This document shows positions 3,483 through 40,296 of a DNA stretch of 64,000 nucleotides, piece by piece. The notes beneath the pieces are model-generated. The model worked only from the letters and a program-made list of their open reading frames with translations. It made no database searches and was not told the origin of the DNA. How positions within the stretch are numbered: position 1 is the first letter of the stretch; the number at the start of each line of letters is the position of its first letter. The stretch covers positions 1 to 64,000 of the IMG/VR virus record IMGVR_UViG_3300002143_000153. One strand, given 5' to 3'. The position numbers and the translations under genes are program-made. This stretch comes from a virus.

Positions 3483-4151
3483 ATGACAACAATAGGAGAA
3501 GTTATATCAAGAATAAGAGGTCAGGTAAAAGCAGAAGTACAAGATGCTTTTGTAACAGATAGATATATCTATAGCCTGATCCAAAAGTTTTCTCAACTAC
3601 TAATGAGAAGACAGGACAGTGCTAATAAATTAATGAAATTTAATTCTGTATGGCAAACATTACCATTTTTTGAATTAGTAGAAGTAGATAAGGTAGAAGC
3701 ATATTGTACAGGAATAAAAAGTAATTGTACAATTATGAGAACTAGAGATAAGTTACCTCATATGATTGAAGGTTACTGGGGACCATTAATTAGAACAGTG
3801 AGCTCCATTGATGGTTCTACTGAGCTACAAATAACTCAACCGGGAACATACACTTCTATGACCAATACTACATCTTTTAGATATAACAAGACTAAATACT
3901 TTTGGTATTTAAATGGTTATTTATATTTTCCAAATATAGAATGGGATGCTGTTAAAATAGAAGGTGTATTTGATGGAGATATTTCTGAGTGGACTTGTGA
4001 TAAAGATGAATGTATTCCAAGATACCAACAAAAGATAAATATACCAGAGGCATTATTTGCTGAAATAGAACAACAAGTTTTAGCTGTGATGACTAACACA
4101 TTGAGAATTCCAGCTGAAGATTCCGATAACAAAATTAATTTACATAGATAA
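3483..4151 (+). CDS. Tail ring/tubular (adaptor) protein
   Basis: MTTIGEVISRIR N-terminal helix, 222 aa, syntenic upstream of the muzzle gene as in crAss-like phages. Confidence 0.55.
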   Translation: MTTIGEVISRIRGQVKAEVQDAFVTDRYIYSLIQKFSQLLMRRQDSANKLMKFNSVWQTLPFFELVEVDKVEAYCTGIKSNCTIMRTRDKLPHMIEGYWGPLIRTVSSIDGSTELQITQPGTYTSMTNTTSFRYNKTKYFWYLNGYLYFPNIEWDAVKIEGVFDGDISEWTCDKDECIPRYQQKINIPEALFAEIEQQVLAVMTNTLRIPAEDSDNKINLHR

Positions 4152-5035
4152 TGTCCGTATCACATAAATATAGAACTTTTGATCAACTGTTAAATGACGT
4201 AGCAATTGATTTTTCCAGTTTTTCATTGGAAGGTTTCGTAGAACCCGCTCAACTTATTAAAGTTGCAACAAGAGTAAACTATGATTTAGGTTTAAAAATA
4301 CATAGAACTAAGCAACTTGTTTTAGAAATTGAACATAATAAAGCTAGACTACCTCATGATTTTGCATATTTAAACTATGCTTTTATTTGTGGTGAGTATA
4401 AGATTGAAACAGGTAGTATGCCTTCAGGTACACATACAGAAACTGTAAGTGTAAATTATGTACCGGAGCCTGGTAATACAGGACCGTGTGAAGATCCAAC
4501 TTGCAATGATGTTTGTATTGTAAAACCTTGCAAAGAAAATGACGGATATAAACTTATTCAAAGAATAAATACTAGTCAGTATAAAGAATACACTGCATTT
4601 TCTCCATTAAGAATTGGAACTGTAAATGATGCAACTTGTGATTGTCCTAATATTAATACAACTTCTTCAAACATTGGTGAAATTAAAGATGGTTTTTTAA
4701 AAACAAATTTTAAGACAGGTAAAGTTTATATAAATTTCCAAGGGGCAATGGAAGATAACGAAGGTAACTTACTTGTATTAGATCATCCTTATTGTAATGA
4801 GTATTATGAGTATGCTATTAAACAAAGGATACTTGAGAATATGATGTTTGCTGGTGAGAATGTTGGAAACCAAATGGGTTTAATTGAACAAAGACTTAGA
4901 GCTGCAAGAAACAACGCTTTAAGTTTTATGAATACACCAGACTTTGCAGAAATGAAAAAAATGTGGGAAGTAAATAGGAAAGCTCAATACCACAATTATT
5001 ATAATATGTTTAAGAGTACACCTACATTAAGATAA
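4151..5035 (+). CDS. Tail ring/tubular protein
   Basis: TAATG-coupled to the previous gene; ARLPHDF motif and helical ends typical of ring/adaptor proteins; synteny. Confidence 0.5.
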   Translation: MSVSHKYRTFDQLLNDVAIDFSSFSLEGFVEPAQLIKVATRVNYDLGLKIHRTKQLVLEIEHNKARLPHDFAYLNYAFICGEYKIETGSMPSGTHTETVSVNYVPEPGNTGPCEDPTCNDVCIVKPCKENDGYKLIQRINTSQYKEYTAFSPLRIGTVNDATCDCPNINTTSSNIGEIKDGFLKTNFKTGKVYINFQGAMEDNEGNLLVLDHPYCNEYYEYAIKQRILENMMFAGENVGNQMGLIEQRLRAARNNALSFMNTPDFAEMKKMWEVNRKAQYHNYYNMFKSTPTLR

Positions 5036-11108: not shown

Positions 11109-14100
11109 TGTATAAAAAATTTCAACAGCAAGAATCAAGAGGTTTACCTGGGGGACCTAATGAAATGTTTAGTTATGTAACAGGTGTATTCTCTATGGAT
11201 GGCTATAAGAGTGACTCACCGGATGTAAACAATCCTTATAATATTATACCTTCTGGTAATATAACAATGAAGGGTGTAGACTTTCCTGTTCATGGTACAG
11301 ACAACTATGGAAATCAAAAGATGATGTATCCAGGAAATGATTATAAGTTTCCTGGGGACATGGTGTTTGAAACACCTATGGCTCAAAATGGTATTGAAGT
11401 ACCTAAAAGACAAGGTGCTAGAAAAAATCCAGATGGTACTGAGTCTACTCATCTTATGGCTACTGAAACTTTAGATGGTAAAAATTGGGTTTCATTTCCA
11501 ACATTATTTCAAGATCCTGATGGTACTTGGATTGATATGTCTGATAAGCCATGGGAAGAAGCTTATGAAGAAGCTAAGAAGAGAGGTGAACTTATAGATT
11601 TTGGTACAGACAAAGAAGCTGCAATTAAGTTTGGGGAAGGTTCTTGGAAACCTAAGATGAAACGTGGTGGTGCACTGTTGAATAAAACTATGAAATGTAA
11701 CAACTGCGGTTGGTCATGGAAAGCTGCTGATGGTGGAGCTGATGTTAATACTTGTCACAAATGTGGAGGTGAAGCTTTAATCAAAGCTCAACCAGGTGTA
11801 GAATTAACAAGAAACGGTAGACTTCAATACGATAAACCTGATCCAAACGCTACATACAAGTCACCTTCTTATGAAGAATATTCTAATTTAGTAAATAAAG
11901 AAAAAACCAAAAAGGTTGAAACAATTGCTGATAGACAAAAATTAGAAAAACAAATATCAAATTATAATATTAGAGGAGAAATAACAACAGATGGTTCAGG
12001 TCAAAAATTTCAAAAACAACAAAAATTAGCAAAAGATAAACAAGGTAATTTAGTTATAAATGAGTATTTAATTAAAGTTGATGATAAACCTCTTGCTTTT
12101 AATGATTCTGGAAATAGTCCTATAAATAGAGCATTAGCTTATCCCTATGTATACGCTAGTGAAAGAACAGGAACTACTGACTTTTTTAAAGGTGATCCTG
12201 CTTATGATGCAGCTAGTAAACAAGGATTAGGCGCTTCTATGATGGATGGTTTATCTTTAATGTCTCCCTATGCTTGGGATTATTCTTTAGGTAAGGTAGG
12301 AACTAATAATCAAAGTGCTTATTCAAGTGGTGATGAATTTATTACAGACATTGCTTTATCTGGTCCTGCATCATTAGCCGGTAACTTAGTTAAAAAAGGA
12401 ATTAAACCTGTAGCTAAAGAAATACCTTCGCTTATGAATAAAGGTAGAGGTATGTTAGATAATGCAGCAGAATATGTTGTTAATCAAAGACCTGCTTCTG
12501 GTAATAATTTTGATTTAGAAAAACTTAGAAACATATATCATAATTCTCAAAGATATTTAGAACCTCAAGAATCAAGATTTTTACATAAAAAAGGTTATGG
12601 TAAACAATCCCAATATAGAAATAGGTATGATGGTACCACTGTTACAGATGAACAAGTAGATGAATTCTGGAGAATTAGAGATGCTAATCAAAATCAATTA
12701 TCACAAATACAATTAGATTTAAGAAGACATGCTCAATATGATGCAGATTTATTAGCTGATGATTATCAAAATCTTATTGCTGGAAGACCTGCTGTTAACT
12801 ATCCTAATTTAGATATAACATCTAATGAATTGCAACAACATATGTTAACTCAGCGTGAACAATACCTAAATACTCAAAGAACATGGCAAACTTTACAAAA
12901 TACACCTCAAACCCCTCTTAAACCAAAAACTCCTATTAATAAATCGGGTTTAACTAAAGATGAAGTATTACAAAAAGCATCACCTAAAGATAAAGATGGT
13001 ATTTCTAAAATGTCTGAAGCTGAATTTGAAAACACTGTTCTTAAACCTAATGGAGAAATAACCCCTTATTATTCGGGTTCTTTGGAAAAACAATTTAGCG
13101 GTTCTCAAAATGTAACGGCTTTATCTCCAAAACAATATACAGATGAATTTAATTCAAGATTAGATTTATTAAATGATATTATTGCTCAAAAAAATAAATC
13201 AGGTGTAGAATATAGAGTTAAGGGTTTAGATGAAAACGGTAGATTAACTTTTTATACACCTGAGCAATCTATACCTGCAAAATTAACAAATGACCAAAAA
13301 GCAACTATTAAAGCATTTAATAAAGATCCTAAAGATTATCTTATAAATCAAGCTGGTTTAGAACAAAAAGGAAATAAATTTAGATTACCTTGGGGATCAG
13401 GAAGCTGGGGTACTGAATTTAATAGTATAGAAGAAGCTATTGAACTTGCAAGAAATGAAATGAAACCTTTTACTAAACCAAAAGTAATATCTGGAGAATC
13501 AACTTGGAGAACTACATTAAATCCTGGCCAATGGAGAGGTGACGTTGAGGATATAGCAAATACAGAATACTTTAGAAGTATTCCTGGTTTAGAAATGTAT
13601 GATACTACGCCTGGAGTATTTGCAGATAATGTAGCAAGAAAAGGTACAGGTGCTTATGAATCTATAAATGAATATCTTAAAGCATTAAATTTAGGTAGAG
13701 TAAAACCAGGATTTAATTCTCAAACTGAATTTTCAAGAGGAGCTTGGGAAAACTTTATTAAATCAGGAAGAGGTGTAGGATTTTATGCTAATCCAAGAAC
13801 TGTATATGGTACTATGAAAACGGCAATACCGTTAACAGGTGTTGGACTTGGAGCATATTCATTATCAGATCCTAATTTTAAATCACCGTTAAATCAAAAA
13901 CAATATGGTGGTGAAGAAACAAATCCATCATTTGATTCTTGGTATTCAAGATATGCTAAAGCTACAGATAATTCTACTAACCCATATGATAAAGAACATT
14001 ACTATGATTATGAATCATTCTTTAATGATAACATAAGTAAACCTGAAAATTTATATCCATTAGATACAAGGGATTGGCATCTGTCTTCTAAATATAAAAA

Positions 14101-15973
14101 AGAGGGTCACCCAAGATTATATGAATATCCTGATGGCACATATGGTGAAAACTATATAGAAGGTGCTAAAGACACAAGAGAGTTTCAAAAAGGTGGTAAT
14201 GTAAGATACACAAGTAATCCTAATGATAGAGGTATAAAAGCTTATGCTGATAGTTTAGATTTGTATAATGAGTATATGGATTTTTACAACCAAGCATTAA
14301 ATACAAATGCAGGAACAAGAGAGCAAGTAGCAAGAAGGTATGGGATTCAAGCTGTTCCTAATAGAAATAATTTATTTAATTTGACTGGATATGATCCAAA
14401 TCTAGTTTTTTCAGATAATAGTTTAACTCATGGTCCTATAGCGGCTTATCCAAATAATAATAGCGTAAACCCAAATATTTTACCCATCGCTGCTAGAAGT
14501 TATTCAGATGTAGATAACGCATTAATTTCTCCTTTTTTAGCAGAGTATAAAAAACCAGTACAACGAGTAAAATACCGTGATCCTGAAATAGTGGCAAAAC
14601 AAAAAGAACTAATTGCCGCAGGTTATGATATAGGTGCAGCAGATGGTATTTGGGGTCCTAAATCTCAAGCTGCTTGGGAACAGACACAAAAAGAAATTGT
14701 TAACTTAAAACCTAATGTTGTTGAACCTACAACTAAAAAAGAATATTCTAGATTTGTAAATATACATGGGAAAAATTATGGCTTTAATAATCAAGAAGAA
14801 TTTTTTAATATAGCAAAAAGTAAAAATATGCCTAAAGGTTGGGCAGAAGCTAATGTTCCAAAAAATTTAGAGTTTCAAAAAGGTGGTGAATATAAAGTTA
14901 AAACAGGAGATACTTTTTATGGTATTGCTAGTAAAAATAAAATAACAAAACAAGCGTTACTAAAAGCTAATCCCGGATTAGATATACAAAATCTTAAATT
15001 AAATCAATTAATTAAACTTCCTACACCACCACCTGCACCAAAACCTGTAGCAGAACCTGTAAAACCAAAACCTCAAGAAACAGCATGGAGTGATTATATC
15101 AATCCTATGAACTGGGGTGTAACTGATAGAGATGATGATGGTACTTTTAGACAAGCATTTAGAGCAGCAAGAGTTGATGGTGACGATGAGTTTATGTGGT
15201 ATGGTAAAAGATATACTACAGATCTTGTAGAAAAAGAAATTAAAAAAGAAACTACAAATGTACCTTTAAAACCAAGTAGTTTTTTACCAACATATTTTAA
15301 TGATATTAAACAAATTGAAAATGCTGAAAAGAAAGGTTGGGATTCTGAAAAACAAAAATGGTTTCCTTATGAATCTTTTGAAGATCCTAAAAGTTTTGAT
15401 ATAGGTTATGGTCATAAAATAAAAACAGGTGAAGATTATTCAAAAGGACTTACAGAAAAAGAAATTTTAGCATTAATAAAAAAAGATTTTAATGAACATG
15501 AAAAATTAGCTGCACATTATATTAATAAAACACATGGTGCTAATACTTGGGCTAATTTAAATTCTTATCAAAAAACATTATTAACAGATACACAATATAA
15601 TGTAGGAAGTCTTGGAGAATTTCCAAGTTTTTCAAAAGGTGTAGTTAATAATGATAAAGAAACTATGTTGAAAGAATACAAAAGATACACTGATGGTAAA
15701 CCATTAGGTAGAAACAAATGGATTCTAGAAACAATAAATGATTATATAGAAAGTGATCAATTCCAACCTATTAAAAAACAAGCTGGTGGTGAAACAGAAA
15801 TGCTTTCTATGTATTCAGATTACATGATGGGTAAATATGATGGCACAGACACGGAAGAAGTTGGTAAAAAGATATATGATAAAATGAATAGACTTTATTA
15901 TAAACAAGCAAAACAAGCAGGAGTAACTGTTCCTAATTATATAATGACTAATATTATTAGGCAAACAGCATAA
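11108..15973 (+). CDS. Multidomain virion cargo protein: Zn ribbon, GNAT-like, PG-binding, LysM and lysozyme-like domains
   Basis: CNNC..CHKC; QKELIAAGYDIGAADGIWGPKS (PG_binding_1); YKVKTGDTFYGIA..ANP (LysM); E..DIGYGH..YNVG (GH24-like lysozyme). Confidence 0.75.
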   Translation: MYKKFQQQESRGLPGGPNEMFSYVTGVFSMDGYKSDSPDVNNPYNIIPSGNITMKGVDFPVHGTDNYGNQKMMYPGNDYKFPGDMVFETPMAQNGIEVPKRQGARKNPDGTESTHLMATETLDGKNWVSFPTLFQDPDGTWIDMSDKPWEEAYEEAKKRGELIDFGTDKEAAIKFGEGSWKPKMKRGGALLNKTMKCNNCGWSWKAADGGADVNTCHKCGGEALIKAQPGVELTRNGRLQYDKPDPNATYKSPSYEEYSNLVNKEKTKKVETIADRQKLEKQISNYNIRGEITTDGSGQKFQKQQKLAKDKQGNLVINEYLIKVDDKPLAFNDSGNSPINRALAYPYVYASERTGTTDFFKGDPAYDAASKQGLGASMMDGLSLMSPYAWDYSLGKVGTNNQSAYSSGDEFITDIALSGPASLAGNLVKKGIKPVAKEIPSLMNKGRGMLDNAAEYVVNQRPASGNNFDLEKLRNIYHNSQRYLEPQESRFLHKKGYGKQSQYRNRYDGTTVTDEQVDEFWRIRDANQNQLSQIQLDLRRHAQYDADLLADDYQNLIAGRPAVNYPNLDITSNELQQHMLTQREQYLNTQRTWQTLQNTPQTPLKPKTPINKSGLTKDEVLQKASPKDKDGISKMSEAEFENTVLKPNGEITPYYSGSLEKQFSGSQNVTALSPKQYTDEFNSRLDLLNDIIAQKNKSGVEYRVKGLDENGRLTFYTPEQSIPAKLTNDQKATIKAFNKDPKDYLINQAGLEQKGNKFRLPWGSGSWGTEFNSIEEAIELARNEMKPFTKPKVISGESTWRTTLNPGQWRGDVEDIANTEYFRSIPGLEMYDTTPGVFADNVARKGTGAYESINEYLKALNLGRVKPGFNSQTEFSRGAWENFIKSGRGVGFYANPRTVYGTMKTAIPLTGVGLGAYSLSDPNFKSPLNQKQYGGEETNPSFDSWYSRYAKATDNSTNPYDKEHYYDYESFFNDNISKPENLYPLDTRDWHLSSKYKKEGHPRLYEYPDGTYGENYIEGAKDTREFQKGGNVRYTSNPNDRGIKAYADSLDLYNEYMDFYNQALNTNAGTREQVARRYGIQAVPNRNNLFNLTGYDPNLVFSDNSLTHGPIAAYPNNNSVNPNILPIAARSYSDVDNALISPFLAEYKKPVQRVKYRDPEIVAKQKELIAAGYDIGAADGIWGPKSQAAWEQTQKEIVNLKPNVVEPTTKKEYSRFVNIHGKNYGFNNQEEFFNIAKSKNMPKGWAEANVPKNLEFQKGGEYKVKTGDTFYGIASKNKITKQALLKANPGLDIQNLKLNQLIKLPTPPPAPKPVAEPVKPKPQETAWSDYINPMNWGVTDRDDDGTFRQAFRAARVDGDDEFMWYGKRYTTDLVEKEIKKETTNVPLKPSSFLPTYFNDIKQIENAEKKGWDSEKQKWFPYESFEDPKSFDIGYGHKIKTGEDYSKGLTEKEILALIKKDFNEHEKLAAHYINKTHGANTWANLNSYQKTLLTDTQYNVGSLGEFPSFSKGVVNNDKETMLKEYKRYTDGKPLGRNKWILETINDYIESDQFQPIKKQAGGETEMLSMYSDYMMGKYDGTDTEEVGKKIYDKMNRLYYKQAKQAGVTVPNYIMTNIIRQTA
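14179..14887 (+). repeat. Exact 19-bp direct repeat AGAGTTTCAAAAAGGTGGT (EFQKGG) at 14179-14197 and 14869-14887
   Basis: Read directly; the copies are 690 bp apart, in frame, and flank a PG-binding module. Confidence 0.9.
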
Positions 15974-15979
15974 TTTTTA

Positions 15980-15993
15980 GTATATTAATAGTG
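15980..15993 (+). promoter_or_regulatory. Putative phage late-promoter motif
   Basis: GTATATTAATAGTG 4 nt before ATG 15998. Confidence 0.55.
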
Positions 15994-15997
15994 TATC

Positions 15998-17779
15998 ATG
16001 AAGTCAAGAAAATTAAATAAAACACCAATGTATCAAGAAGGTGGCTCTTTAAATAAGGCATCTTCAAACATTGCTGTTGAAGAACTTGTACGTGAAGTAC
16101 AACAAAGAATAGAATCAGGAGAACCTCCTGAACAAGTGCTTTTATCTTTCTTACAAGAAGGTGTAGCACAAGAACAATTGGGTATTGCTTTTGAAAATCT
16201 TGGTTATGACCCAGCTGCATTTACAGATTTAATGATGGGTGCAGAACAAATGGTTCAAGCTCAACAGCAGCAACAACAACCTCAACAAAGCATGATACCT
16301 GAAAATCCTATACCACAAGGATTTGAAGCTCCTGAAGGTGAACAACCTATAATGCAAAGAGGTGGTTCTACACCTTTATATTTACCACCTATTCCAAGAA
16401 AAGGTAACATAGCAAATGCAGCTTATTGGCTTAATGATGCTATTGGAACTGGTATGGATACTGTAAATAATTGGGATACTGATAAAGCTAAGTATAAAGA
16501 AAAACAATTATCTAATAGATCTTATGAAGTTGATTTTAAAGGTAATGATTTAAAAAATTATGTACCTACTTGGGAAAATTTAGCTTCAGGTAAAATAGAT
16601 ACAAAGAAAGAATTTGAAGATAAAGTAAAGCAGTATAGCAGGCTTAGTTTTGATCCGGGTACAAATCAGTATGCAAATGATTTAATGTGGTCTGAAAACC
16701 AGGTTAAAACGCGTTCTGAAGATCAACTTAAAGGTACAACATCACTAAAAGATTTTATGTCTAATGTATCTGGTTATAGTCAAGAAGATAAAGATATATT
16801 AAGAAGTGCAACTCAGGCACCTAAAGATACAATATTAGGTTATGATGATAATGGTTATCTTGTATCAAAAGATGCAAGTAGTCTTACACCATCTCAACGT
16901 GAAGAAGAAACTAATATTTATAAGGATATACAATTAGGTAAAAGAAAAATAAATAATTCTCAAACACCAAGTCAATCTAATACACCTATATTTGAAATAC
17001 CTGAACGGAATATGCTGCAAGCACCTTCTTCAAATTATGAGTTTAGATACGGTGGTGATTTACCAAAAGCTGAATTTGGACCACCTCATTTATTTAATCA
17101 AAATCAAACTAAAAAACCTACATTTCAAGAATGGGTTTTAGAAGATCCTGTAACAAGAGGTACTGCATCAAGTAAAGATGAATATAATAAATTATATCCT
17201 GAAACTTTTGATTTTTCAGGTCCAACAGATAATTCACTTTCAATGAGTGATCCTGAAGTTACAAGAAAAAGAACTTTAGGAAATGCTTATAATCAAGTAG
17301 AAACTTTTATAAAAGATAATCCTGGAATGAAAGCTTTTGGTGATATATCAAACGGTCTTGTTATGGGTGCAAATCTTGCAAATGAATTTTTTCAACAGAA
17401 CAAGTTTGATGACTATAAAAATGATTTTAGAAATAGTACAATAGCTGATAAAACATATTCTACTAATACACCTCCAGATGCAAGAGGTAATTGGGATCAG
17501 TATGGTTTTACAAATGTTCAAAAATTTACACCTAATATGTCTCAAGCAATGTATGGTAGTGAAATGTATAAGGCTGGTGGTGCGTTTGAACCACACATGA
17601 TGTATGATCCTAGAACTAAAGAAAGTTATAATGCTAATCAAAAAGAAGATCATTTAAGAATGGCTGAGATGGGTTATTTGCATCAAAATGAAATGTATCA
17701 AGAAGGTGGTGAAATGGAAGTTGATAACGATACTCTTATGGCATTAATAGCTGCAGGAGCAGATTTAGAAATATTATAA
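15998..17779 (+). CDS. Virion cargo protein with repeated xQxGG motifs
   Basis: MYQEGG x2, MQRGG, FRYGG, KAEFG, MYKAGG; Q-rich; lies between the muzzle and RNAP genes. Confidence 0.55.
   Translation: MKSRKLNKTPMYQEGGSLNKASSNIAVEELVREVQQRIESGEPPEQVLLSFLQEGVAQEQLGIAFENLGYDPAAFTDLMMGAEQMVQAQQQQQQPQQSMIPENPIPQGFEAPEGEQPIMQRGGSTPLYLPPIPRKGNIANAAYWLNDAIGTGMDTVNNWDTDKAKYKEKQLSNRSYEVDFKGNDLKNYVPTWENLASGKIDTKKEFEDKVKQYSRLSFDPGTNQYANDLMWSENQVKTRSEDQLKGTTSLKDFMSNVSGYSQEDKDILRSATQAPKDTILGYDDNGYLVSKDASSLTPSQREEETNIYKDIQLGKRKINNSQTPSQSNTPIFEIPERNMLQAPSSNYEFRYGGDLPKAEFGPPHLFNQNQTKKPTFQEWVLEDPVTRGTASSKDEYNKLYPETFDFSGPTDNSLSMSDPEVTRKRTLGNAYNQVETFIKDNPGMKAFGDISNGLVMGANLANEFFQQNKFDDYKNDFRNSTIADKTYSTNTPPDARGNWDQYGFTNVQKFTPNMSQAMYGSEMYKAGGAFEPHMMYDPRTKESYNANQKEDHLRMAEMGYLHQNEMYQEGGEMEVDNDTLMALIAAGADLEIL
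16027..17709 (+). repeat. Exact 18-bp direct repeat AATGTATCAAGAAGGTGG (MYQEGG) at 16027-16044 and 17692-17709
   Basis: Read directly; brackets most of the 593-aa ORF. Confidence 0.85.
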
Positions 17780-17781
17780 TA

Positions 17782-20379
17782 ATGGCAAAAATTAAATTAA
17801 ATAGTTTACCACAAGGCTTTGAAATAAAAGATGGTAAAGTAATGAAAAAAATGAAGCAAGGTGGTATGACTGGTGATCAATCTGGTTATGGTTTGACCAC
17901 AACAACCTCTTCTTATGGTAGCGGTAGTTTTAATAATGCTGAGGATAATAAAAATGTTAGATATTCATTATCTTCTGTGCCTAAAGATATTGCCAATATA
18001 GAAGCTGAAGGTGGAGAAACTGTACTTACAGATCTTAATGGTGCTGGTAAGTTTGGTCTTTATGATATCAAAGGACCTAGACATTCTAAAGGTGGTGTAC
18101 CAATGTTTTTACCTACAGGTGCTTTTATTTTTTCTGATACCGATGCAATGAAATTTGATAGAAATGAACTTGCTGAATTTGGTGTTGAATCTAAAAAGAA
18201 AATAACACCAGCAAAAGTTTCTAAAAAATATCAGTTAAATGAATTTATAGGAGCACTTGCTGATGAGGATGCTGATTCTATAAAGGTGAAAAGTGCTGAG
18301 TTAATGTTAAATAAAAACATGATGGGTTTATCTAAAGTTGCATTTGCTCAAGAAGCAAAAAAACAATTTTCAGATGGTTTACCTAAAGCTGCATATCCTT
18401 ATATAGTATCTAAAGGTCAAGATCCTGAGCAGATGTCTCAACAAATTGAGGCAAGGAAAAATGAACAAAATGTAATGAATGCTATTGGAGCATTACCACC
18501 TGAACAACAAGCTAAAGCTATGGCTTTAAGACAAATGATGGGTGATCAAAATTCACAGGGTATGGAGCAACCTATGGCTCGTGATGGTTATGAATTACCA
18601 AAAGCTCAACTTGGTCTTGGCAATCCATTGGATATTTTTAATTATGGTAGAAACGTTTGGAACCAAAACAAACAGGGGTTAGTGAATGAATTATATAAAG
18701 ATAAAAGTAAACAAATTGATCCAAAAACATATAATCCAAGTTCAAGTTACGGTTCTAGTTTTTTAGAGGCAAATAAAGCTTTGTCAACAAATAAAGGTTT
18801 TATACCTTATAGATTAGATGACAATGGTGATTATCCAGTTTATGCTCAACAAGCTATTCAAAATGAAAATGCAGCAGCAAGTTCAAAAGCTAATGCAGAA
18901 CAAAATATGAATGCTGCAAATGCAGCAACTACAAAAAGACCTGTAGTAACAGCAACTAGTTCAGACGATAAATCAAACATAGCTTATAGTCCTAAAGTCA
19001 AAGATTTTTATAATAGATTTAATATAAATGTAAATGATGTAGGTGTAAATGCAACTACTTATAAAGACGTACAAGGTTATCAAGGTGAAGGTTTGTATGG
19101 TGATGCCGCTTCAAATTTAGAAGGTTGGAAAAAATCATGGTCCCCTTTATATCCAGATGCAGATAAATTAATACAGTCTTTACCTAAGTATGGAAAAGGT
19201 GAAAAAAATCCTGAAGTAGTAAAGTTTCAAAAATGGCAAGATGAAAATTATATACCTGAAGAAATGGCTAGGATTAAAAAAACCTGGGAAGATGAAGGTA
19301 ATATTTGGACACCTGAATTACAAGGTTCTTTAGAAAAAGCATTTAAGAAAGATTTTGGATTTGATCCAAATGCAACAGGTAAAGACTATGATGGTTTTAT
19401 GGGTACATTTACATCAAGTAGAAGACCATGGGATACTCAAGGTAATCCAAAAACACAAAATACTCCTGATGATTCAAACATAAATATAACACCTGAAGAT
19501 CCTAATTATTCATATGTTGATCCAGCAAAAGATTTCTGGATGCAAGATTATATTAAAATGGGAGCACAAGCTCAAAGAGATAGAGCTTTGTTTACACCAT
19601 GGCAACCCAATGTAGAGATACCTCAAATTGATTATATTCTTGAAGATCCTACAAGAGCTCTTGCTGATACTAACGAACAACTAAATATAGCAGGTCAAGC
19701 ACTAGGTGCTTTTGCTGGACCTCAATCATTAAGTGCAAGATTATCACAGGCTCAAGGTAATGCTTTTAAACAAAACGCTAATACTTTTGCTCAAGTACAT
19801 AATAGAAATGTAGGTACTGTTAATCAAGCTTTGGGTCAAAATGCTCAGTTAAGAGCTGTTGCTCAAAGAGAAAACAGAGATAGACAGGTTAAACAGTATG
19901 ATGATACAATGCTAACTTTTCAAAACTACTTAGATGAAAAAAATGTAGATAGAGAACAAATGGCTGATCTTAGTGCTAATGCTTATACAAATATGGCTAA
20001 TACTTATAATATGAATACATTGTATCCTTATTATAATATTAATCCTAATACAGGTGGTACAGTTGATTGGAATGGTGGTGCACCTCCAATGATTGCTAAT
20101 AACCAAGCAGGTAACCAAATGGATTTATATGATCAGATGACTCAAAGAGCTATTGATTTAAAATCTAAAAATTTAGATGCGGGTACTATAAATTTAATAT
20201 TGAATAATACTTATGGTACACCAGCACAGGCACCAACTCAAAAGTCTGCTTATCCAAATGCGGATAGTCTTAGAGCACATAGACAACAAGGTATGTCTGG
20301 TGGTTATGGTATTAGTAAATCAGGTAAAGAAATAAAACCTTATGCTACACCATTTTATATAGGAAAAACATTTTTTTAA
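17782..20379 (+). CDS. Virion cargo/ejection protein
   Basis: IEAEGGE...HSKGGV domain, MKQGG/MARDG/KAQLG motifs, N/Q/A-rich helical C-terminal half. Confidence 0.55.
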   Translation: MAKIKLNSLPQGFEIKDGKVMKKMKQGGMTGDQSGYGLTTTTSSYGSGSFNNAEDNKNVRYSLSSVPKDIANIEAEGGETVLTDLNGAGKFGLYDIKGPRHSKGGVPMFLPTGAFIFSDTDAMKFDRNELAEFGVESKKKITPAKVSKKYQLNEFIGALADEDADSIKVKSAELMLNKNMMGLSKVAFAQEAKKQFSDGLPKAAYPYIVSKGQDPEQMSQQIEARKNEQNVMNAIGALPPEQQAKAMALRQMMGDQNSQGMEQPMARDGYELPKAQLGLGNPLDIFNYGRNVWNQNKQGLVNELYKDKSKQIDPKTYNPSSSYGSSFLEANKALSTNKGFIPYRLDDNGDYPVYAQQAIQNENAAASSKANAEQNMNAANAATTKRPVVTATSSDDKSNIAYSPKVKDFYNRFNINVNDVGVNATTYKDVQGYQGEGLYGDAASNLEGWKKSWSPLYPDADKLIQSLPKYGKGEKNPEVVKFQKWQDENYIPEEMARIKKTWEDEGNIWTPELQGSLEKAFKKDFGFDPNATGKDYDGFMGTFTSSRRPWDTQGNPKTQNTPDDSNINITPEDPNYSYVDPAKDFWMQDYIKMGAQAQRDRALFTPWQPNVEIPQIDYILEDPTRALADTNEQLNIAGQALGAFAGPQSLSARLSQAQGNAFKQNANTFAQVHNRNVGTVNQALGQNAQLRAVAQRENRDRQVKQYDDTMLTFQNYLDEKNVDREQMADLSANAYTNMANTYNMNTLYPYYNINPNTGGTVDWNGGAPPMIANNQAGNQMDLYDQMTQRAIDLKSKNLDAGTINLILNNTYGTPAQAPTQKSAYPNADSLRAHRQQGMSGGYGISKSGKEIKPYATPFYIGKTFF

Positions 20380-35500: not shown

Positions 35501-38465
35501 GGAAATAGATGTAACTTTAAATAGCAAATGGGGTGAAATAAATGTTAATGACCAACCGCTTACTAAATTTGAAAACTTTACTAAAGATTCTTCCGGTGTA
35601 AGATCTCAATATTTGTTATCTAATCTTATAAGTGCTGCTACAGATGATGCTAAAGAAAGAATATTATCTGCACTTGGTTTTAATAAAGATGCTATAGGTA
35701 TTGTAGAAACAATGCTGGCCATGGGGTTATCTGTACATACAGCTACAATGTTTGTTAATGTTCCTGTTATAAGGAATGCTATGAAAGAAAGTGATCCATC
35801 TATAATTAAAACAGCAATATCAAATGTAGGTACAGATAAAGATGTAAATGTTACAGATTTAATTTTATCAAATGCTATTAATAAGACAGCTACTCCAGAA
35901 GAGTTATTAGGTATATATAAAACTTTTAATAAATTTAAAAATATAAAAGTGTTCATAGATAACTTAATACCTATTTTTAATTTAAATACGGGATTTGGTA
36001 AAGATTTTACCAGCTTAGAAGAGGTTCAACAAGGAATTGATGAATTGGGTATATATCTATCAGATGTAGAATTTAATAAAAACAAGTTACCTTTTGATAT
36101 AAGAAATGGTATTAAAAACCATTATATTTCAGGTTACTTAGAAATTTTTAATGAGTTTACAGAAGCAGTTCTACCTAGAGTTTTCTTAACGCAAACTGCT
36201 AAGTTTAAGGAATTAACTTCTGGTATATTTGGTTATAGTAGTTTTTCTGCAAGCAAAAAAGTAAAAGGTAAAGATCAAATTTCTAAAAATGTTTTAGCTT
36301 ATGTAACAATAAAAGCTTACATGAATCAGCTCTTTAAAAATGAAGAAGCTGCAAGTGCAATTGGTGGTTCATTAAACAATGACTTTATTTATGGTAATGG
36401 TAATTCAAACTATAACATTAATACAGTATTTAATAATTTAAGAGAAAACAATAAAGGTAAATCTAATTATTTTTTAGACTATTATGCGTCTACTCAAAAA
36501 GCTTCTGATAAAATTAATACTACAGGTTTAAATCTACTTAACTCAAACAGTTTTGGTAAACTAAGTGATAATGAAAAAGTACGTATTCAAAATGGTTTTC
36601 ATCAATTGTATGGTGAGAAAGAAACAAGAGCTGATGCTGTTAATATAATACACTATGTAATGATTAAAGACGGTCTTCAGTATGCAAATGGAAGTATACT
36701 TGATGCATTGGTTCCTTTTACTATGGAGAATTACTTAAGCGCATCTACAAAAGCATTTAATGTTTTTAAAGGTAATGATAATTTTGAAGACGTTTTTGGT
36801 GTATCATTTGAAGAATTAAAAGATGAAGTAATAACTAAATATGGTAGAGCTACATCATATGCATCAAACATATATAAACTTTCTCCTGAATATTTATTTA
36901 AAGGAAAAGATTCTCCGTTTGCTTATGAAGAAATAAAACTTGATGATACTCTAACATACACTAGAGTCATGTCTAATGATAAGTCTAAACCTAGTAAACC
37001 TTTATTTAAATTTCCTTTATTCATAAATAGAAGAGTAAAAGATCCAATAAATGGTAATTCAGAAGGTTACATAAATAATTATTATGTACTAACAAATGCA
37101 ACTTTAAATGGTGAAGATGTAATGTGGAAGAGAGGTGCTGGTGCCATAGATTCTGATAAAGTAACTTATGTTAAATATGAATTAGAAGGTGCTTATAAAC
37201 AAAACATTATTGGTTTTATGTTTGATAATGAAAACTACAAAAGACCTACAATCAAAGAACTAATAGCGTATAGACAAAGTCTTAATGACTTTTCTTCATA
37301 TAGAGATGACTTTGATGATATTGATTTTGATGATATTGATTTTGAGGATATTTTAATGGAAGAAGCTGAATCTAACAAGTTTACATTTTCTTCAGTTGAT
37401 GAAAGTAGTGTAGTAGCAAATGAAAAAGGAATTGCTATTGATGATATAAATATTTCAGATTACAAACGACCTGAAGGTGTTGAAGATGCGGAGAATAAAT
37501 TGCTTAAGTTTATGGCAAACAAATCAAATCCAGCACAACCAGCTACTGGTGCTGAAGAAGTGTTATCTATACAAGATGTTTTAAAAGAATATACCTTAGA
37601 AGAATTAAAACAAGGAGTTAATCTTAGGTCATTACAGGATAAAGTATTAAAAGGTGATGAAGAAACTATTAAAACTGCATATAACTACTTAAAAGCATAT
37701 GAAAAGGTAGAGTTATTAAAAAAAGAGTATGATAATACAGTAGAAAAAAATAAGGAAATTACTACAAAGATTAATAGTCTAACTCAAAGAATTAATGATA
37801 CTATACCAACAAAAGTTGGAGATGTGCTTGATATATCTAATGATGAAAATATGTCTGATTATAAGGCTAGATTATTAGAGATAACAAGAAATGAAAAAGG
37901 TGCTGTATTAAAAATTATAACAGCAAAGAAAAAAGAATATACACTTGTAGTTACTAAGGAAGGAGAAACTAAAACAGGATATGTAACTAATTTTGTATTT
38001 GAATCAAGCAAAGAAGATGTTGGAACATTAAGAGCGGATAAAGAAAATCTAAAAAGTCAATTAGTTTCTGTTAAAGATTACTTTGATTATGATAATGCAT
38101 TTTCAAAAATATGGAAAGATTATTTTATACCCACTCAACCATCTACTAGTGTTGAACCAGGAGTACAAGAACTATTTGATTCTAATCCTAAATTAGCTAA
38201 TGCTGTATATGGAGCTTTAGGGTTTCCTATCATTAATGAATCAGAAATAACTTATACAGATGAAAACGGTAATCCTTGTGCTAAAATAGGATTAACTAAT
38301 ACTACTAAAGGAACAGGTTGGAAAATAGTTAAAGATTTTAAAGGACAACCTAAACATAGTCAAGGTGGTGTAGATATTATTATTTCTGATAAAGGAATAA
38401 GTATGAGAAAAAGCGGTAAAGATATAAAAGCTAAGTTTGGATTATTAATATCTAATAATAATTAA
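23502..38465 (+). CDS. Virion-packaged single-chain double-psi beta-barrel RNA polymerase polyprotein with zincin metallopeptidase domain
   Basis: RIPSQ (about 34738) and GADFDIDK (DFDID at 34854-34868), the crAss-like RNAP catalytic motif; YHEAFH (30219-30233) followed by EEYMADEF. Confidence 0.9.
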   Translation: MDLKNQNTVTPEGVENSLPINTSISQAWNPDGFEFKPMNEIFDFGPNTDDQVAEEFRRTINEIVPKVNEIIPSSNLEYKKGAPGLNSFEGFSKVFDNPNSYMAGVKDDPLYLKPMISGARSSGFDRIADHHNFKELGWNPLRDNEKYYNDNSSAFWDLTRATKYWAESLGTGFMSSYRSFGDFIDDDSYWLSADYESSDEFEEATRLGSSTRGGFAGFSTNLFLQTGYTVGILSSIAAEELALAAATTASEGIAAPAFLSRTMVNFGRSIKNMANLFDVGKALKGSKSILDSIRSVENAKDLWDASRTIGAAPVKFLGNVFTPETMAVIKSMKSAENTAQGMTAAAKFGKGFGAFYKDMRSINYAMSEGKMEAGFVFNEVFSEGLAIKKRENGGFDLSQEQLKTLNEDALKAATETLWFNAPAIFLTNQLVLGTALRGFSPTMRRIFSDKLPGFAKNIIRSKPVRDKATGVLNKGLYVDVSPKNFRANFINLKKLKSVGAKGTLINTAHGLLRYSAASIGEGLQEVYQEGVQVGVVDYHRALMENPMAPATNLMQQSFKEAVNSQMSGQGLEVFASGFLMGGLVQGPQKLFFEIAPEIYQNKKNPEKFAEYEKNKIEFLKVANEVGDKIQENPFDFWNNSKLHLFSAKEGDDETKKALYEDDNLGFRDAKDDATFMHYHFLMTSEADGLFREQFQDLLNLNDEDLKALYPDSNKPIEDVRNKIQKSIDGIKEYKKKYNDSFDIIQNPINYNQYEKRKRKYNDERIKHAAIEHARMLYLFANDAFEQANKRRYNIENTLITSPVMNDLASNDLTVLLSVDSINLENNMLIREISNLQKAEKPDSKLIKEKQAKLKSLIEYRVILESIYDEESKTYDRDKSSKLKDPLVKYLKTLGAINKKGYIKRDEINGVIAMLVDHNNLDTRAQLFDRTVALFSDPNKILNLVDRISDNLGVLFSNTKKIYVKSVEQAVMNEEMKQLTSQLESIGVVPDPDQFDAFLKSGNANLLTKFHTEKGILDRTIDKEIYDVIQSEINVYNTASNYKPEITEAEEVDEFGNIADESPANKSIDESKFDNIISEELGDDVLSEIQEETPDNDLTIPGDAFFTLQVLNNIYNDYKIKNINKESALLTFQEWVNTNAGNNVVRGLDKLKALWFNSLKASDKTEEENTTLYKSEEGFQDWILENKNDRVVSLIMIMAGFNIKSIESEKTETDLESIVDTATEEVIQIGPNVNIVKRKVINPEDTTDFNYIYELVDNNNISIEAQFLKEAGVDGIYLEENKAGAWAAYTALLKVVPKTDVYSYDGIDVKYGDELENVNGDKFIVLGADTSPSMGQYLKLIPFDKVGLSNEQKKAAMIYVKEKGFSDLYSKPENKITSITYSTNMTKLDHRDINGVYAIQLTSRTTTSGKETIKDAEERLQKTLSLLSAEDLESATVTIRENVRQAPKAFQTGTTPENNLIQNKGDKYTVLITLSPGSIDKVKSLYGENFNGDIAFIRNDRYGFVGRSGNQVSVDAFTDGNLKKYILGNNTDASDLKNQMLRQSELTEKLDELVKDNVSMSLKDFQDTTKINLKISDGIVTWDDVTKSLNDLAYSTYDGVKVVMINTKDGVSYVTDIKNPTEEVAFINKLEEDLEKTPKPEKYGNMLNMALDSGRYVAIVKDANGVVTAVQLRQKSYSKEERTEFYKELLDRAKETADNNVKEGNVSNKTINNDWNDNFNKRFYLKATAGTFIDFKVWPDGNITLSIHNKAKGLEKQLERIRVADLNEYIKDPIKVESLYEVLNNNDVVVKFNKYQSEKINLSGESVTRVFATTAGVSEIIEKTVTDINPNVRINKKLYLEYTSDLIEAEKIIPGVELEDQKGEVLTPQETAIATDKVSDINQIQAARESQEELNSDEITAEADIERELFTTPISLNNWTSVEHGKYIKLLTLRGDLEKRDLLRNLDPKSSWQLYAVENLSEEEAGDILSIIKEAKKADIEIRKNKSRTIDSQPFQRNNTTGANSNFERNSTDVKRIGLSIDKKINDGKTSNEIIQELAAQGIVAMTNTLDRFREFISDRQSGKTTQTFEEWYNETVSELDAELDAELDALNTNTEQTSETLSLEDQIKKLEGRKSILDKQINDEAKAQGVNRYNLKQGSEEYQQLDSEIKNLKSQRKNAFKIVNTPEALAEDLKIDDFINWAKRNLPDFIQIVDIAELKNKLKANGYTAGQFTMALRNIAGGVEVSGTIYTGPSSMIAYHEAFHSVFRMLLTDEEQTKLLKIAKDEVRAKFKTPEALMEDMLQFQTLSPLYKSMSLKRLEREYLEEYMADEFAKFKQNPRSTKTSSIIKSLFNRIIEWIKAALKRYSKNELINVFENIDAGKYKGGAVADNFYTKDLDGDITIEAYKAIPYESINGELFASELFLDPATSDLLIRMIANTYLERVSKAKTNIEENKVKDQLSNLLSKYSKLNDEDQTEEITSEKVYIGAVIADYADLYYPGRDIYNGDKFSDSQAEKLEQIYKALTLDDGEKVADEVADYISLFDMKFEEINNEIDYLENSIGSRSVDQYGRENQEIGIQPSKKIRLYIASTIVTSKDMFGNTELLNGEPIKVAVKYQDVHNGLMLAAMNEIDPFKMITRMYYHSRRSLNTAAVLDRFLNDVGIINGSRSMSDVIDSGELPTDIKDTLLYHEFIKTYKNSRFDYAFHLKDKKLGKAIIISASQSDAATAQIDSWKKFHGDKFELFKQNDKALNQAVSSLTLLSKTLGKNKITNKELSALADSLSKNIFEDLGISFSRGFLEVSISSSIVNKKKYQKNLTEVGENIRLITKEDALQMLLALRVKVTSDVGSKIVKFRPENLFVDVEGKGVSSRLMSLALGNAHFDEAIGATVFTDVNDKLIYAHQHQTYHSRRIAQLNSETFLTELVEENAFLEKNILTDNLAFRQMAKDKMLAITRVSGTKNADLSNSQIDNLSDAALKEEGVTYGDMSSAEFINTLVDLYVQSFNTKSETNEKITYKNEEGFTETIAKAPVLLRIMEASNTNDLVSLPVIKTVSMTDNNEWSITDNALQLFANEIEREYNAIKENFKKGIQGFDGIDGYNDMQSDRSDKGRGFKFFKMDVLLNDENKKVYLEAAEAGLNFTEAYPINSLKNDLNKELQSLLDSFDIMLKDEKLATLQNNNKIKFNFSSLVTGSFPKTEKGKRAMEELNLSENDQSFNIAQIFLNNFLNTMAINQLILGEEARLFKDPFIDAIKRAKMQNTAPISVESYAIDKAKGINHTLGDDSISLITMEDALYDQVFTDKSVRGKGEKTDAQTYITSKGSRYFNYGLGQLTDAMVQLHNKIDAGEIITSEDWYGNKNNIGFLKAGAILNSQKYVYGDGQSFIKMSTVTLTKEETSDLVNGVWVAKIGMEELHNTREMMEEYEKTNPTKVAFLAPRSAVKMLKSRVHSLSRITDNKSPLKTTDVTPINAKDFGLQQVNPSNKLEVTLPNQIKSLITSEQKDSEIVIINGMPLEIGAIKKAYHKLTKEGVKFEFRQKKNLMFDLLPVLDLDILSSMEKDSTIDANLATFLRAANNYLKSSAAGSNMVEFFKTNKGYAKYELNNPITIKKFEQFFLAYFSKKVLAEKVTGHAFALKSGFGKSIIRKVYSLDSEGNIDKQDVIRRKVHQQNGNKEVTIDLRTENGFEQLKEALKNNSEGVTVIDRLRINLPKYNKIGAVKDWVATGERIAETIVPAHYKEVMDLIENWNYNKYGRIPDVIARMFVVRIPSQDKHSALSVEVVDFDPVFLGSTAVFPDELIEVSGADFDIDKVFAHIKEWYIKKGEFIEYGRSNATEEEKYDDYIYNSNKLINKKDSYLYDALYKYNTIGGSKINALKPKQRKELLKDKNFKEETLDALSMLNLPRTFKEYTVYKEKYGVEPYKAAINNQLLDLKMALVSNKAMTESINGDTPLAFQPADIEALKAEKTRLFNEFPQLKALSKDDFPIDSLIGQYYSHLNVKQNANLIGAVVPRNVVINFLKEIDVTLNSKWGEINVNDQPLTKFENFTKDSSGVRSQYLLSNLISAATDDAKERILSALGFNKDAIGIVETMLAMGLSVHTATMFVNVPVIRNAMKESDPSIIKTAISNVGTDKDVNVTDLILSNAINKTATPEELLGIYKTFNKFKNIKVFIDNLIPIFNLNTGFGKDFTSLEEVQQGIDELGIYLSDVEFNKNKLPFDIRNGIKNHYISGYLEIFNEFTEAVLPRVFLTQTAKFKELTSGIFGYSSFSASKKVKGKDQISKNVLAYVTIKAYMNQLFKNEEAASAIGGSLNNDFIYGNGNSNYNINTVFNNLRENNKGKSNYFLDYYASTQKASDKINTTGLNLLNSNSFGKLSDNEKVRIQNGFHQLYGEKETRADAVNIIHYVMIKDGLQYANGSILDALVPFTMENYLSASTKAFNVFKGNDNFEDVFGVSFEELKDEVITKYGRATSYASNIYKLSPEYLFKGKDSPFAYEEIKLDDTLTYTRVMSNDKSKPSKPLFKFPLFINRRVKDPINGNSEGYINNYYVLTNATLNGEDVMWKRGAGAIDSDKVTYVKYELEGAYKQNIIGFMFDNENYKRPTIKELIAYRQSLNDFSSYRDDFDDIDFDDIDFEDILMEEAESNKFTFSSVDESSVVANEKGIAIDDINISDYKRPEGVEDAENKLLKFMANKSNPAQPATGAEEVLSIQDVLKEYTLEELKQGVNLRSLQDKVLKGDEETIKTAYNYLKAYEKVELLKKEYDNTVEKNKEITTKINSLTQRINDTIPTKVGDVLDISNDENMSDYKARLLEITRNEKGAVLKIITAKKKEYTLVVTKEGETKTGYVTNFVFESSKEDVGTLRADKENLKSQLVSVKDYFDYDNAFSKIWKDYFIPTQPSTSVEPGVQELFDSNPKLANAVYGALGFPIINESEITYTDENGNPCAKIGLTNTTKGTGWKIVKDFKGQPKHSQGGVDIIISDKGISMRKSGKDIKAKFGLLISNNN
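29733..29767 (+). repeat. Tandem 12-bp repeat GAACTTGATGCA x3 (ELDA)
   Basis: Read directly; the third copy lacks the last base. Confidence 0.9.
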
Positions 38466-38466
38466 C

Positions 38467-40296
38467 ATGAAAAAACAAAATATTGAAGTTGAAGGTGGAG
38501 AATTATTAATAATGTCAAAAGAAGGACATTATGCAGTAATACCAGCTAAACATAGACAAGAAGTAATGGATATTATTAAAGATGGTTGTGATAATTGTAT
38601 TAATAATTATATACAAACATTACCTAAAGATAGTGATTATGCAGAAGATGGTACAGTTATATCTGAATTATATAAACAAAAAACTGGTAAAGATTGGAGT
38701 ACAGCTAAACAAGAAGGATTAACTACTGGTAGTTATGATGATAACATGAAATTAAGAGATAGATTAGTAAAAGGTGAATTTGATAATAAACAAATGAACA
38801 GTAATAATTCTAAACAAATTATCAATAATACCACTCAAAATCAGGATTATACAAAAGCTAAAGATTTTAATGAGGCTTTTAAAATAGCAAGAAACCAATT
38901 AGGAACTAATCAAATATTTGAATATCAAGGTAGAAAATATGGAACTAATATATTAGGTGAGAAGTTTGAACCTTCTGAAGAAGTATTAATAAAAGCTAAT
39001 ATGAATAAACCAGAAGTAAAACAAAGATTAAACAAACAAAATAATATGGTATCTTCTGTTTATTCAGATAAGAAAACAACTAAAGTTGTACCAGAATACC
39101 AGGATTGGGATAAGGTAAAAAAGAGAACTAAAGAATTAAATAAAATGAGCCAAGCTGATATAATAACAGGTTATCATAAAGATTCAGAAGAACAGTACCT
39201 AGTATTAGACAAAAAGAGGGGAAAGATGCATTTATATAAAGGAGATAAAGAAATATCTTCATATAACGTAGGAACTGGAGCTAATGTTGGAGATGAGCAG
39301 ACAAAAACAGTAGTTAAAAACGGTAAAGTTGATTGGGATGCCGGAAATAAGATGACAGGAGCTGGTATATATACAGTATCAGGAGTAAATCCTAAGAATA
39401 GTCATTATTCTGATGCACCTACTTGGAATTTTAAAAATGAACAAGGTATTGAAGTTCCTATGGCTATTCACAGTAGTTTTGGGGATAGAACAGCTAAACT
39501 AAAAGATAATGATGAAACTAATAATAGGCTCTCTAATGGTTGTATAAATGGTATTTGTTACAATCTTAAAGAACTTTATAAAAATGGATACAAAGAAGGA
39601 CAAAAGTTGTATGTACTTCCTGATGACGAAAGCAATTCATACACATTGAGTAACGGAAAGTTAATTCTAAAATCAAATGATAACAATGTAAATAAAACAG
39701 TTAATACACTAAATTACAAACCAATTAAAATAGTATACCCTAAAGATTACAGTCCTGAAATTCCTAAAATGGCAAGTAGTATAGTAAATAACAAACAAAA
39801 CCTAATGAAAGATTTAAAAATAAATGGAGATATCTATAATGACATAGCAGAACTTACTCTTGGTGTAGCTGGTCAAGAAACTGACTATGGAAATTCTGTA
39901 AAATATAAATTAAAAACAGAATTAGTACAAGACGCATTAAAAACAGTTACAGGAAATAACAGTTATAATAGTAAGGGGATAACCCAAATTAAATATGATG
40001 CTCAAATTAAAAATGAAGAAGTAGCTAAATTATTTAATAAATATGGAATTACTAAAGATAACTTAGAAAGCGGGGATAAAGCTGCTATTGCTCAATTAAT
40101 ACTCTTTGCTACAATGTATAAATATGAACTTCCTAACTATAAAGATGTAAATATAGATGATATGGATAAACTGCTGTATTTAAATCAAGGTAAGTCAAGT
40201 GAATTAAAAAATAAAACAGCAACACCCAATGAAAATATTTATATAAGAAATGTAAAAGAATATAAAAATAAATTTAAACTTAAAGAACTTAATTAG
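38467..40296 (+). CDS. L,D-transpeptidase (YkuD-like) fused to a lytic-transglycosylase/lysozyme-like domain
   Basis: LVLDK..MHLY..VGTG..TGAGIYTV..AIH..SNGCIN; C-terminal QETDYG..KGITQIK..LNQG..YIRNV. Confidence 0.7.
   Translation: MKKQNIEVEGGELLIMSKEGHYAVIPAKHRQEVMDIIKDGCDNCINNYIQTLPKDSDYAEDGTVISELYKQKTGKDWSTAKQEGLTTGSYDDNMKLRDRLVKGEFDNKQMNSNNSKQIINNTTQNQDYTKAKDFNEAFKIARNQLGTNQIFEYQGRKYGTNILGEKFEPSEEVLIKANMNKPEVKQRLNKQNNMVSSVYSDKKTTKVVPEYQDWDKVKKRTKELNKMSQADIITGYHKDSEEQYLVLDKKRGKMHLYKGDKEISSYNVGTGANVGDEQTKTVVKNGKVDWDAGNKMTGAGIYTVSGVNPKNSHYSDAPTWNFKNEQGIEVPMAIHSSFGDRTAKLKDNDETNNRLSNGCINGICYNLKELYKNGYKEGQKLYVLPDDESNSYTLSNGKLILKSNDNNVNKTVNTLNYKPIKIVYPKDYSPEIPKMASSIVNNKQNLMKDLKINGDIYNDIAELTLGVAGQETDYGNSVKYKLKTELVQDALKTVTGNNSYNSKGITQIKYDAQIKNEEVAKLFNKYGITKDNLESGDKAAIAQLILFATMYKYELPNYKDVNIDDMDKLLYLNQGKSSELKNKTATPNENIYIRNVKEYKNKFKLKELN

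Follow-up and report, generated by a model that had tools for sequence, protein, structure and literature searches.

Two exact DNA repeats in cargo genes of a marine crAss-like phage encode a Gly-Gly seam peptide at the borders of exchanged modules

The cargo genes and their exact repeats

The stretch of DNA analysed here (the window, 64,000 nucleotides (nt)) comprises bases 1-64000 of the IMG/VR record IMGVR_UViG_3300002143_000153, a 93,957-nt uncultured viral contig that is about 82% complete and without head genes, and our subject is two pairs of exact direct repeats that lie in two consecutive genes of this window. The runs holding the stretch were marine, aquatic and sediment metagenomes, and the window belongs to a marine crAss-like phage: Pfam searches placed CrAss_Ring_2 at 3483-4151 and CrAss_Ring_1 at 4151-5035 (both virion proteins in PHROGs), and the ring genes were followed by open reading frames (ORFs) of 2022, 1621, 593, 865, 1019 and 4987 amino acids (aa), the last weakly similar to gp47, in the gene order of crAss001 gp39-gp47, namely ring, muzzle, cargo C1, cargo C2 and RNA polymerase (PMC10172136). 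The 1621-aa protein (P0001) and the 593-aa protein (P0002) are predicted virion cargo proteins, each a string of modules.

The initial annotation had reported an exact repeat recurring in frame 690 bp apart and another at 16027 and 17692, and both were confirmed. The first, AGAGTTTCAAAAAGGTGGT (19 nt), was present as two exact plus-strand copies in the P0001 ORF at a spacing of 690 nt, equal to 230 codons (Table 1); both are read as GAG, TTT, CAA, AAA, GGT and GGT, encoding EFQKGG, while the leading A of the 19-mer is the final base of the preceding codon. The second, AATGTATCAAGAAGGTGG (18 nt), had two exact copies in the next gene (ORF 15998-17779, P0002), where they encode MYQEGG at aa 11-16 and aa 566-571. 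Two tandem arrays set aside, these pairs are the longest dispersed exact direct repeats of the window; neither the 19-mer nor the 18-mer had a third copy, even with 3 mismatches permitted, and two matches to the repeat arose in 0 of 100 shuffles. No larger hidden duplication was found around the EFQKGG copies, whose flanks were unrelated in DNA and protein, so that the repeats do not mark the centre of a longer duplicated segment. The two exact repeats are two codings of one short Gly-Gly peptide, referred to below as the seam, which stands between cargo modules. Since the second pair brackets almost all of P0002 it is implausible as an excision pair, and its two sites differ in the orthologues (Table 1).

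Codon usage and identity of the repeats

The genome has a GC content of 30% and a skewed codon usage (GAA 0.83, TTT 0.90, CAA 0.86, AAA 0.83, GGT 0.67), as a result of which identical hexapeptides often share their DNA and DNA identity becomes uninformative. Calculated from codon usage, the probability of DNA identity given the peptide was 0.08 for EFQKGG and 0.046 for the 19-mer with its extra upstream A, and 0.20 for MYQEG and 0.057 for the entire 18-mer. The only minor codon among those shared was GAG, and in the second pair the first synonymous site past the repeat was already unlike (GGC and GGT). Genome-wide, 28 pairs of identical hexapeptides were found, one of which (the EFQKGG pair) was DNA-identical against 1.2 expected, while GGTGGT was used in 10 of 14 seams and in 30 of 61 other Gly-Gly dipeptides, which is no significant excess (p = 0.15). 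The 18-mer GAGTTTCAAAAAGGTGGT recurred in 8 other IMG/VR contigs, always as in-frame EFQKGG with unrelated flanks, and in one of these EFQKGG again stood immediately before a LysM domain.

The repeats are therefore beyond chance as raw DNA, but not once the shared peptides and codon bias are counted. Their synonymous-site identity, which had been read as a sign of recombination, is the codon-bias expectation and carries no extra information, and conservation of seam-coding DNA beyond protein constraint and codon bias was not found. The claim that exact DNA repeats point to a recombination site does not hold statistically, a caution for AT-rich phage genomes, in which identical short peptides often have the same DNA.

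Two other roles for the repeat DNA were considered and dropped: a slippery site, the heptamer not being of the X XXY YYZ type, and a Shine-Dalgarno-like pause signal, GGUGG pairing poorly with the anti-Shine-Dalgarno sequence.

Module differences between relatives

P0001 was compared with its homologues and with metagenome contigs, and crossovers in the four proteins P0003-P0006 and in the contigs were located to residues or contig joints rather than to nucleotides. On P0001, 21% of the internal ends of BLASTP homology blocks (n = 367, the ends not being independent of one another) lay within 5 aa of five seams, where 3.4% was expected, and the ends piled up at residues ~95, 185, 230, 935, 1255 and 1550. 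DNA homology blocks of distant loci ended at 11380/11381, 11660/11672 and 14871-14884. The module at 11379-11665 was not found in loci L005 and L006, and in L011 it was located 2.3 kilobases further into the gene.

The protein P0003, which is 95-98% identical to P0001 where the two can be aligned, showed three block differences. It is without residues 96-181, reading PMARSGG-ALL in place of PMAQNG, the module and KMKRGG-ALL; the equivalent of residues 456-927 is an unrelated segment; and it reads KQYGG-EET-K-EFQKGG-EYKV, with 13924-14868 (945 nt, modules A and B) gone and a single EFQKGG left. Five of its six borders fall within 6 aa of a seam, the exception being 12472. The corresponding joints were present in contigs from two studies, 11355 being joined to 11666 in X3 and X9 and 13923 to 14869 in X1 and X3, and contigs of this type carried a 251-nt unlike loose end before 13895. 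The left edge of the 945-nt difference lies nine bases past a different seam, and its right edge coincides with the first base of copy 2; the microhomology is one base. Alternatively, but less parsimoniously, the difference could consist of two events, A being lost via an ACAA microhomology and B between the repeats, together with one substitution.

In P0006, the match to P0001 (97% identity in module A) runs from KQYGG to the EFQ of copy 1, after which T stands for K and the sequences are unrelated. P0004 and P0005 are near-identical to P0001 over a stretch that opens ahead of module A, takes in copy 1 and most of module B and reaches EFQKGGE, beyond which an unrelated module replaces LysM; sharp junctions were thus placed at copy 2 in two comparisons and at copy 1 in one. 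The left junction of P0005 (NKQP/KQYGG) is mid-module on the side shared with P0003 and looks like illegitimate joining. Seams are the preferred borders of module gain, loss and swap among close relatives.

The suggestion that modules are inserted or excised in frame therefore stands in so far as it concerns these borders in relatives and metagenome contigs, but not in its use of repeat-DNA identity as evidence; codon bias, which the initial annotation itself had named as the explanation to be set against recombination, does account for the identity, yet relatives do show module loss and replacement at seams. A relative without 14198-14887 and with one repeat left, as anticipated there, was not found, the nearest variant being without 13924-14868, that is, A and B together. 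No deletion joint from 14197 to 14888 was seen in the contigs of four runs, although contigs drop rare variants and its absence is not thereby shown, and a degenerate search of IMG/VR for the clean junction left by loss of module B (DTREFQKGGEYK) gave no match. Scans of IMG/VR with P0001 or its parts returned distant loci only, and the relatives recovered in one metagenome scan were 58-74% identical and carried neither module A nor module B.

The module between the two copies of the first repeat had been described as carrying a peptidoglycan (PG)-binding domain. Its match to Pfam PG_binding_1 (E 0.0025, 18.4 bits) was below the cut-off of 23 bits, and in the PDB a lytic transglycosylase and an L,D-transpeptidase were matched weakly in their PG-binding parts; a PG-binding domain in module B is therefore probable rather than established.

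Table 1. Coordinates of the cargo gene features discussed in the text.
Feature	Position in window	Strand	Remarks
Modular cargo gene P0001, 1621 aa	11108..15973	+	Crassvirus C1 position; downstream of ring genes and 2022-aa ORF
Module between MAQNG and KMKRGG seams	11379..11665	+	Not in P0003-type variant; elsewhere in locus L011
29-nt island coding QKQYGGEET, seam before module A	13895..13923	+	Kept in P0003-type variant between two unrelated differences
Module A, aa 936-1023	13913..14178	+	No Pfam match; 97-99% identical in P0004, P0005 and P0006 with differing neighbours
EFQKGG seam (repeat copy 1) at the C-terminus of module A	14179..14197	+	P0006 homology stops inside, between EFQ and GG at K/T; an X9 contig ends at 14187
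Module B; aa 1158-1194 of P0001 probably a PG_binding_1-like helix region	14198..14868	+	Sub-threshold Pfam match, weak PDB matches
EFQKGG seam (repeat copy 2) at the C-terminus of module B, next to LysM	14869..14887	+	Border in P0004/P0005; joint 13923 to 14869
LysM domain, aa 1262-1305	14891..15022	+	Pfam E 2.5e-10; starts two residues past seam copy 2
Second pair, copy 1, MYQEGG near N-terminus of 593-aa gene	16027..16044	+	Orthologues LYQEGG
Second pair, copy 2, MYQEGG, 24 residues from C-terminus of 593-aa gene	17692..17709	+	Orthologues EMQKGG/EMQGGG

Smaller differences were also seen within this part of P0001. A divergent patch inside module B (14341-14465) corresponded to a joint skipping 123 nt in contigs of three studies (X1, X3, X9), and P0004 and P0005 were unrelated to P0001 over residues 1102-1160 and near-identical on either side, a small intra-module exchange away from the seams. 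At 15030, the X1 and X3 contigs and P0003 had 12 extra bases (one more PAPK unit), showing that the Pro-rich linker after LysM varies in length.

The seam as a protein feature

The seam profile (an aromatic residue, Met or Lys; then Gln, Lys, Arg or Ala; then any residue; then Gly-Gly) occurred 11 times in three consecutive cargo genes, and the same profile was obtained across 1188 Gly-Gly contexts in the homologues. Across relatives the seam forms the C-terminal tail of the upstream module, as in KAQxG of the zinc-ribbon, DTR-EFQxGG of module A and NLE..FQxGG of module B. The peptide ahead of the LysM module is EFQKGG, KLQEGG, KYQTGG, KAQDGNG or MAQTGNG depending on the relative, with differing Gly codons, and dozens of seam variants follow the conserved central module. 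Recurring aromatic-x-x-GG peptides were also identified in crAss001 gp45 (SAYGG, AFAEGG, KAFGG, NAFGG, FAYGG).

Most likely, the seam is a feature of the protein. We rate the chances of an uncut hinge or docking handle as about even, and a role as a processing site as a tentative alternative. The portal-bound segment in the cryo-electron microscopy model of crAss001 gp45 comprises residues 425-552 (PMC10172136) and runs through the Gly-Gly at 427-428, which argues against cleavage at that point. No peptidase family was detected in P0001, its segments or the neighbouring large ORFs, and no cognate cysteine protease among the scanned ORFs, which did not take in all small ORFs of an incomplete record, so that absence is not shown. 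No description of the crassvirus seam was found in the literature searched.

Many seams extend as GG-WLD-x-Y (homologues P0018, P0036, P0057 and P0026), and several homologues terminate 10-17 residues past such a seam. In crAss001 gp45, NAFGG-WLN opens the portal-bound domain, and a longer docking element may exist of which the seam is only the beginning.

Origin of the repeats and junctions

We favour, with a probability of about 0.68, recombination that is filtered by selection for seam-preserving junctions, the repeats being chance identical hexapeptides under codon bias. Ordinary recombination between co-infecting relatives would produce many junctions, mostly unguided by seam DNA and some of them illegitimate or aided by microhomology, and the survivors would be in-frame junctions with a working seam between intact modules; where two seams are alike, microhomology may increase the yield. 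T7 and T4 lose DNA between short direct repeats, and phage genetics suggests that a 19-nt repeat with a spacing of 690 nt, whatever its origin, should give rise to rare in-frame deletions of module B. Several observations sit uneasily with this preferred reading and point towards a concerted process or one at the DNA level. A seam variant recurred identically within one protein ~2.8 times as often as between proteins (38 cases, with 13.8 expected, not independent of one another), and modules related to A and B were flanked by matched variants across lineages (FQKGG/FQKGG, FQTGG/FQTGG, YQTGG/YQTGG, TFQNGG/TFQNGG). The breakpoint of P0006 is inside a seam, and a 29-nt seam island has been left between two independent differences. 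The matched variants may stem from gene conversion or from crossing-over inside seams, and equally from co-evolution with one partner protein.

These same features bear on the proposal that the seam-coding DNA is itself the recombination substrate, with identical stretches of ~15-30 nt promoting homologous or microhomology crossovers, and perhaps gene conversion, and modules moving in frame. Breakpoints at or within seams, the survival of the QKQYGGEET island between two events and the matching of variants within proteins would all be accounted for, and at the copy-2 junction the DNA common to P0004-like and P0003-like parents is only the ~21 nt that code EFQKGG(E), to which any crossover between them would be confined; a precedent exists in T-even gp38, where glycine-rich motifs flank exchangeable hypervariable segments (PMC3157838). 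The proposal is nevertheless doubtful, given that DNA identity is not above the codon-bias prediction, that seam peptides and codons vary between relatives (most seam pairs share little beyond GGNGGN), that the junctions at 12472 and in P0005 are off-seam, that the repeats do not bound the 945-nt indel and that clean loss of 14198-14887 was found neither in the contigs of the four runs nor in IMG/VR. Seams acting specifically as in-frame microhomology crossover points, with variants kept alike by gene conversion and the 19-nt pair a live site of excision and insertion, are in our judgement unlikely; if they did so act, marine crassviruses would possess a built-in cassette-exchange system for injected effector modules. 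The identical hexapeptides flanking module B might also be a footprint of its arrival, a module with its own C-terminal seam having come to lie beside a seam of the same variant, or might have been made alike later through selection by a shared partner or protease. That each seam acts as the tail of its upstream module, that the residue at the third seam position changes in concert (K at both seams in this lineage, T at both in P0006) and that one variant is reused 3-4 times in many proteins (KKYGG four times, YQKGG three times) fit such a history, but only two independent lineages are available for the A/B pair, the unlike seams KMKRGG, KQYGG and KQAGG stand in the same protein, and neither a partner protein nor a protease was found among the scanned ORFs, and we consider it quite improbable. 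A chimeric metagenome assembly, joined at shared k-mers, has in its favour that the record is an uncultured viral contig and that graph assemblies break at seams, leaving contig ends there; it is scarcely credible when the X15 contig (6758 nt, possibly from the source sample) covers 11852-18000 without differences, P0004 and P0005 show the same order (A, EFQKGG, B, EFQKGG) in other data sets, and 19 nt is below the usual assembly k-mers.

Comparison with known systems

Homologues of P0001 number more than 170, are 900-2800 aa long and mosaic, and vary in their sets of domains (LysM, PG_binding_1, YkuD, SLT, SET, ART-PolyVal, lysozyme). No Pfam match to the portal-binding domain crAss_CARG1 (PF25725) was obtained for P0001, sequence similarity between P0001 and crAss001 gp45 was undetectable, and blastn and tblastn searches of the GenBank phage collection gave no match, while in the homologue P0025 crAss_CARG1 is found at 1164-1288 with the domain start at a seam. 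P0001 is a member of a wider mosaic family and not a demonstrated C1 orthologue.

The cargo proteins C1 and C2 of crAss001 (gp45 and gp46; Bayfield et al. 2023, PMC10172136; PF25725) are comparable to P0001 in gene position, with the ring and muzzle genes on one side and those of the virion RNA polymerase on the other, and gp45 also in its recurring aromatic-x-x-GG peptides, whereas P0001 differs from gp45 in having cell-wall modules (LysM, PG-binding-like) and in being far more mosaic. Neither the seam motif nor module exchange was described for crAss001 (PMC10172136). Polyvalent proteins of phages and conjugative elements (Iyer, Burroughs, Anand, de Souza and Aravind 2017, PMC5512222) are likewise large, virion-delivered and multidomain, with domain sets variable between relatives, and several unrelated effector or enzymatic domains in varying architectures were indeed found among the homologues of P0001. 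For polyvalent proteins, recombinational variability was suggested and processing by embedded zincin-like peptidases predicted, with no mention of a glycine seam or linker (PMC5512222); unlike them, P0001 had no detectable embedded peptidase domain.

In the T-even gp38 adhesins, short glycine-rich motifs separate exchangeable segments, and exchanges between related phages are located at the motifs or close to them (Trojet et al. 2011, PMC3157838). The gp38 motifs are strictly conserved in sequence and order, form a structural core and separate loops, whereas in P0001 the seams are degenerate peptides that differ from relative to relative and lie between whole modules that fold independently. 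Tetart and co-workers are said to have described, in 1998, T-even gp38 glycine-rich motifs flanking hypervariable segments. Polymorphic toxins (CdiA with VENN, Rhs with DPxGL; see also PMC3482391) similarly have a short conserved peptide, with a role at the protein level, at the border of cargo swapped by recombination; there, one C-terminal toxin is swapped via long upstream homology and orphan cassettes, whereas in P0001 the exchange concerns many modules inside the protein, and a store of cassettes was not seen. As with the gp38 glycine-rich motifs and VENN, differences between close relatives of P0001 begin and end at seams. For viral polyproteins cut after Gly-Gly (adenain, or pS273R of African swine fever virus, type), the cognate cysteine protease was not found in the ORFs scanned here, the head genes being outside the record.

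Motif-bounded exchange and mosaic polyvalent proteins were already known, and what is new is the negative result for the DNA repeats together with junction data for this phage at the population level. Crassviruses rank among the most abundant phages, and their injected proteins decide the first minutes of infection; a recognisable seam provides a simple rule to parse and compare cargo proteins and marks the sites at which cell-wall-active and other effector modules are naturally gained and lost.

Further observations on the cargo genes

Gly-Gly was also found 10-28 residues from the start in several cargo ORFs (window positions 11150, 16040, 17860 and 38494). GLPGG was kept in nearly all P0001 homologues, and crAss001 gp45 and gp47 have Gly-Gly at 16-21; this element may be a leader or packaging tag. 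A Gly/Ala-rich hydrophobic stretch (e.g. IPLTGVGLGA) at the end of the conserved central module (P0001 ~905-920, window ~13820-13870) stood just before the seam in nearly all relatives, and may insert in a membrane, like a segment predicted in crAss001 gp45.

Paired IE(A/V)EGGE and (R/K)HS(K/Q)GG motifs were located at 18010-18100, near the start of the 865-aa ORF, and at 38364-38500, where the pattern reaches from the end of the 4987-aa ORF into the start of a 609-aa YkuD ORF. The pair resembles the 'EGGSHE' stretch of crAss001 gp45 and also the CARG1 region of P0025, and may represent a diverged cargo-1 portal-binding domain missed by Pfam. Further along the window, 53552-54148 within ORF 53221-54447 held six diverged copies (60-70% identity) of an N-T-T-G-rich unit of ~51/102 nt, probably a fibre or adhesin repeat.

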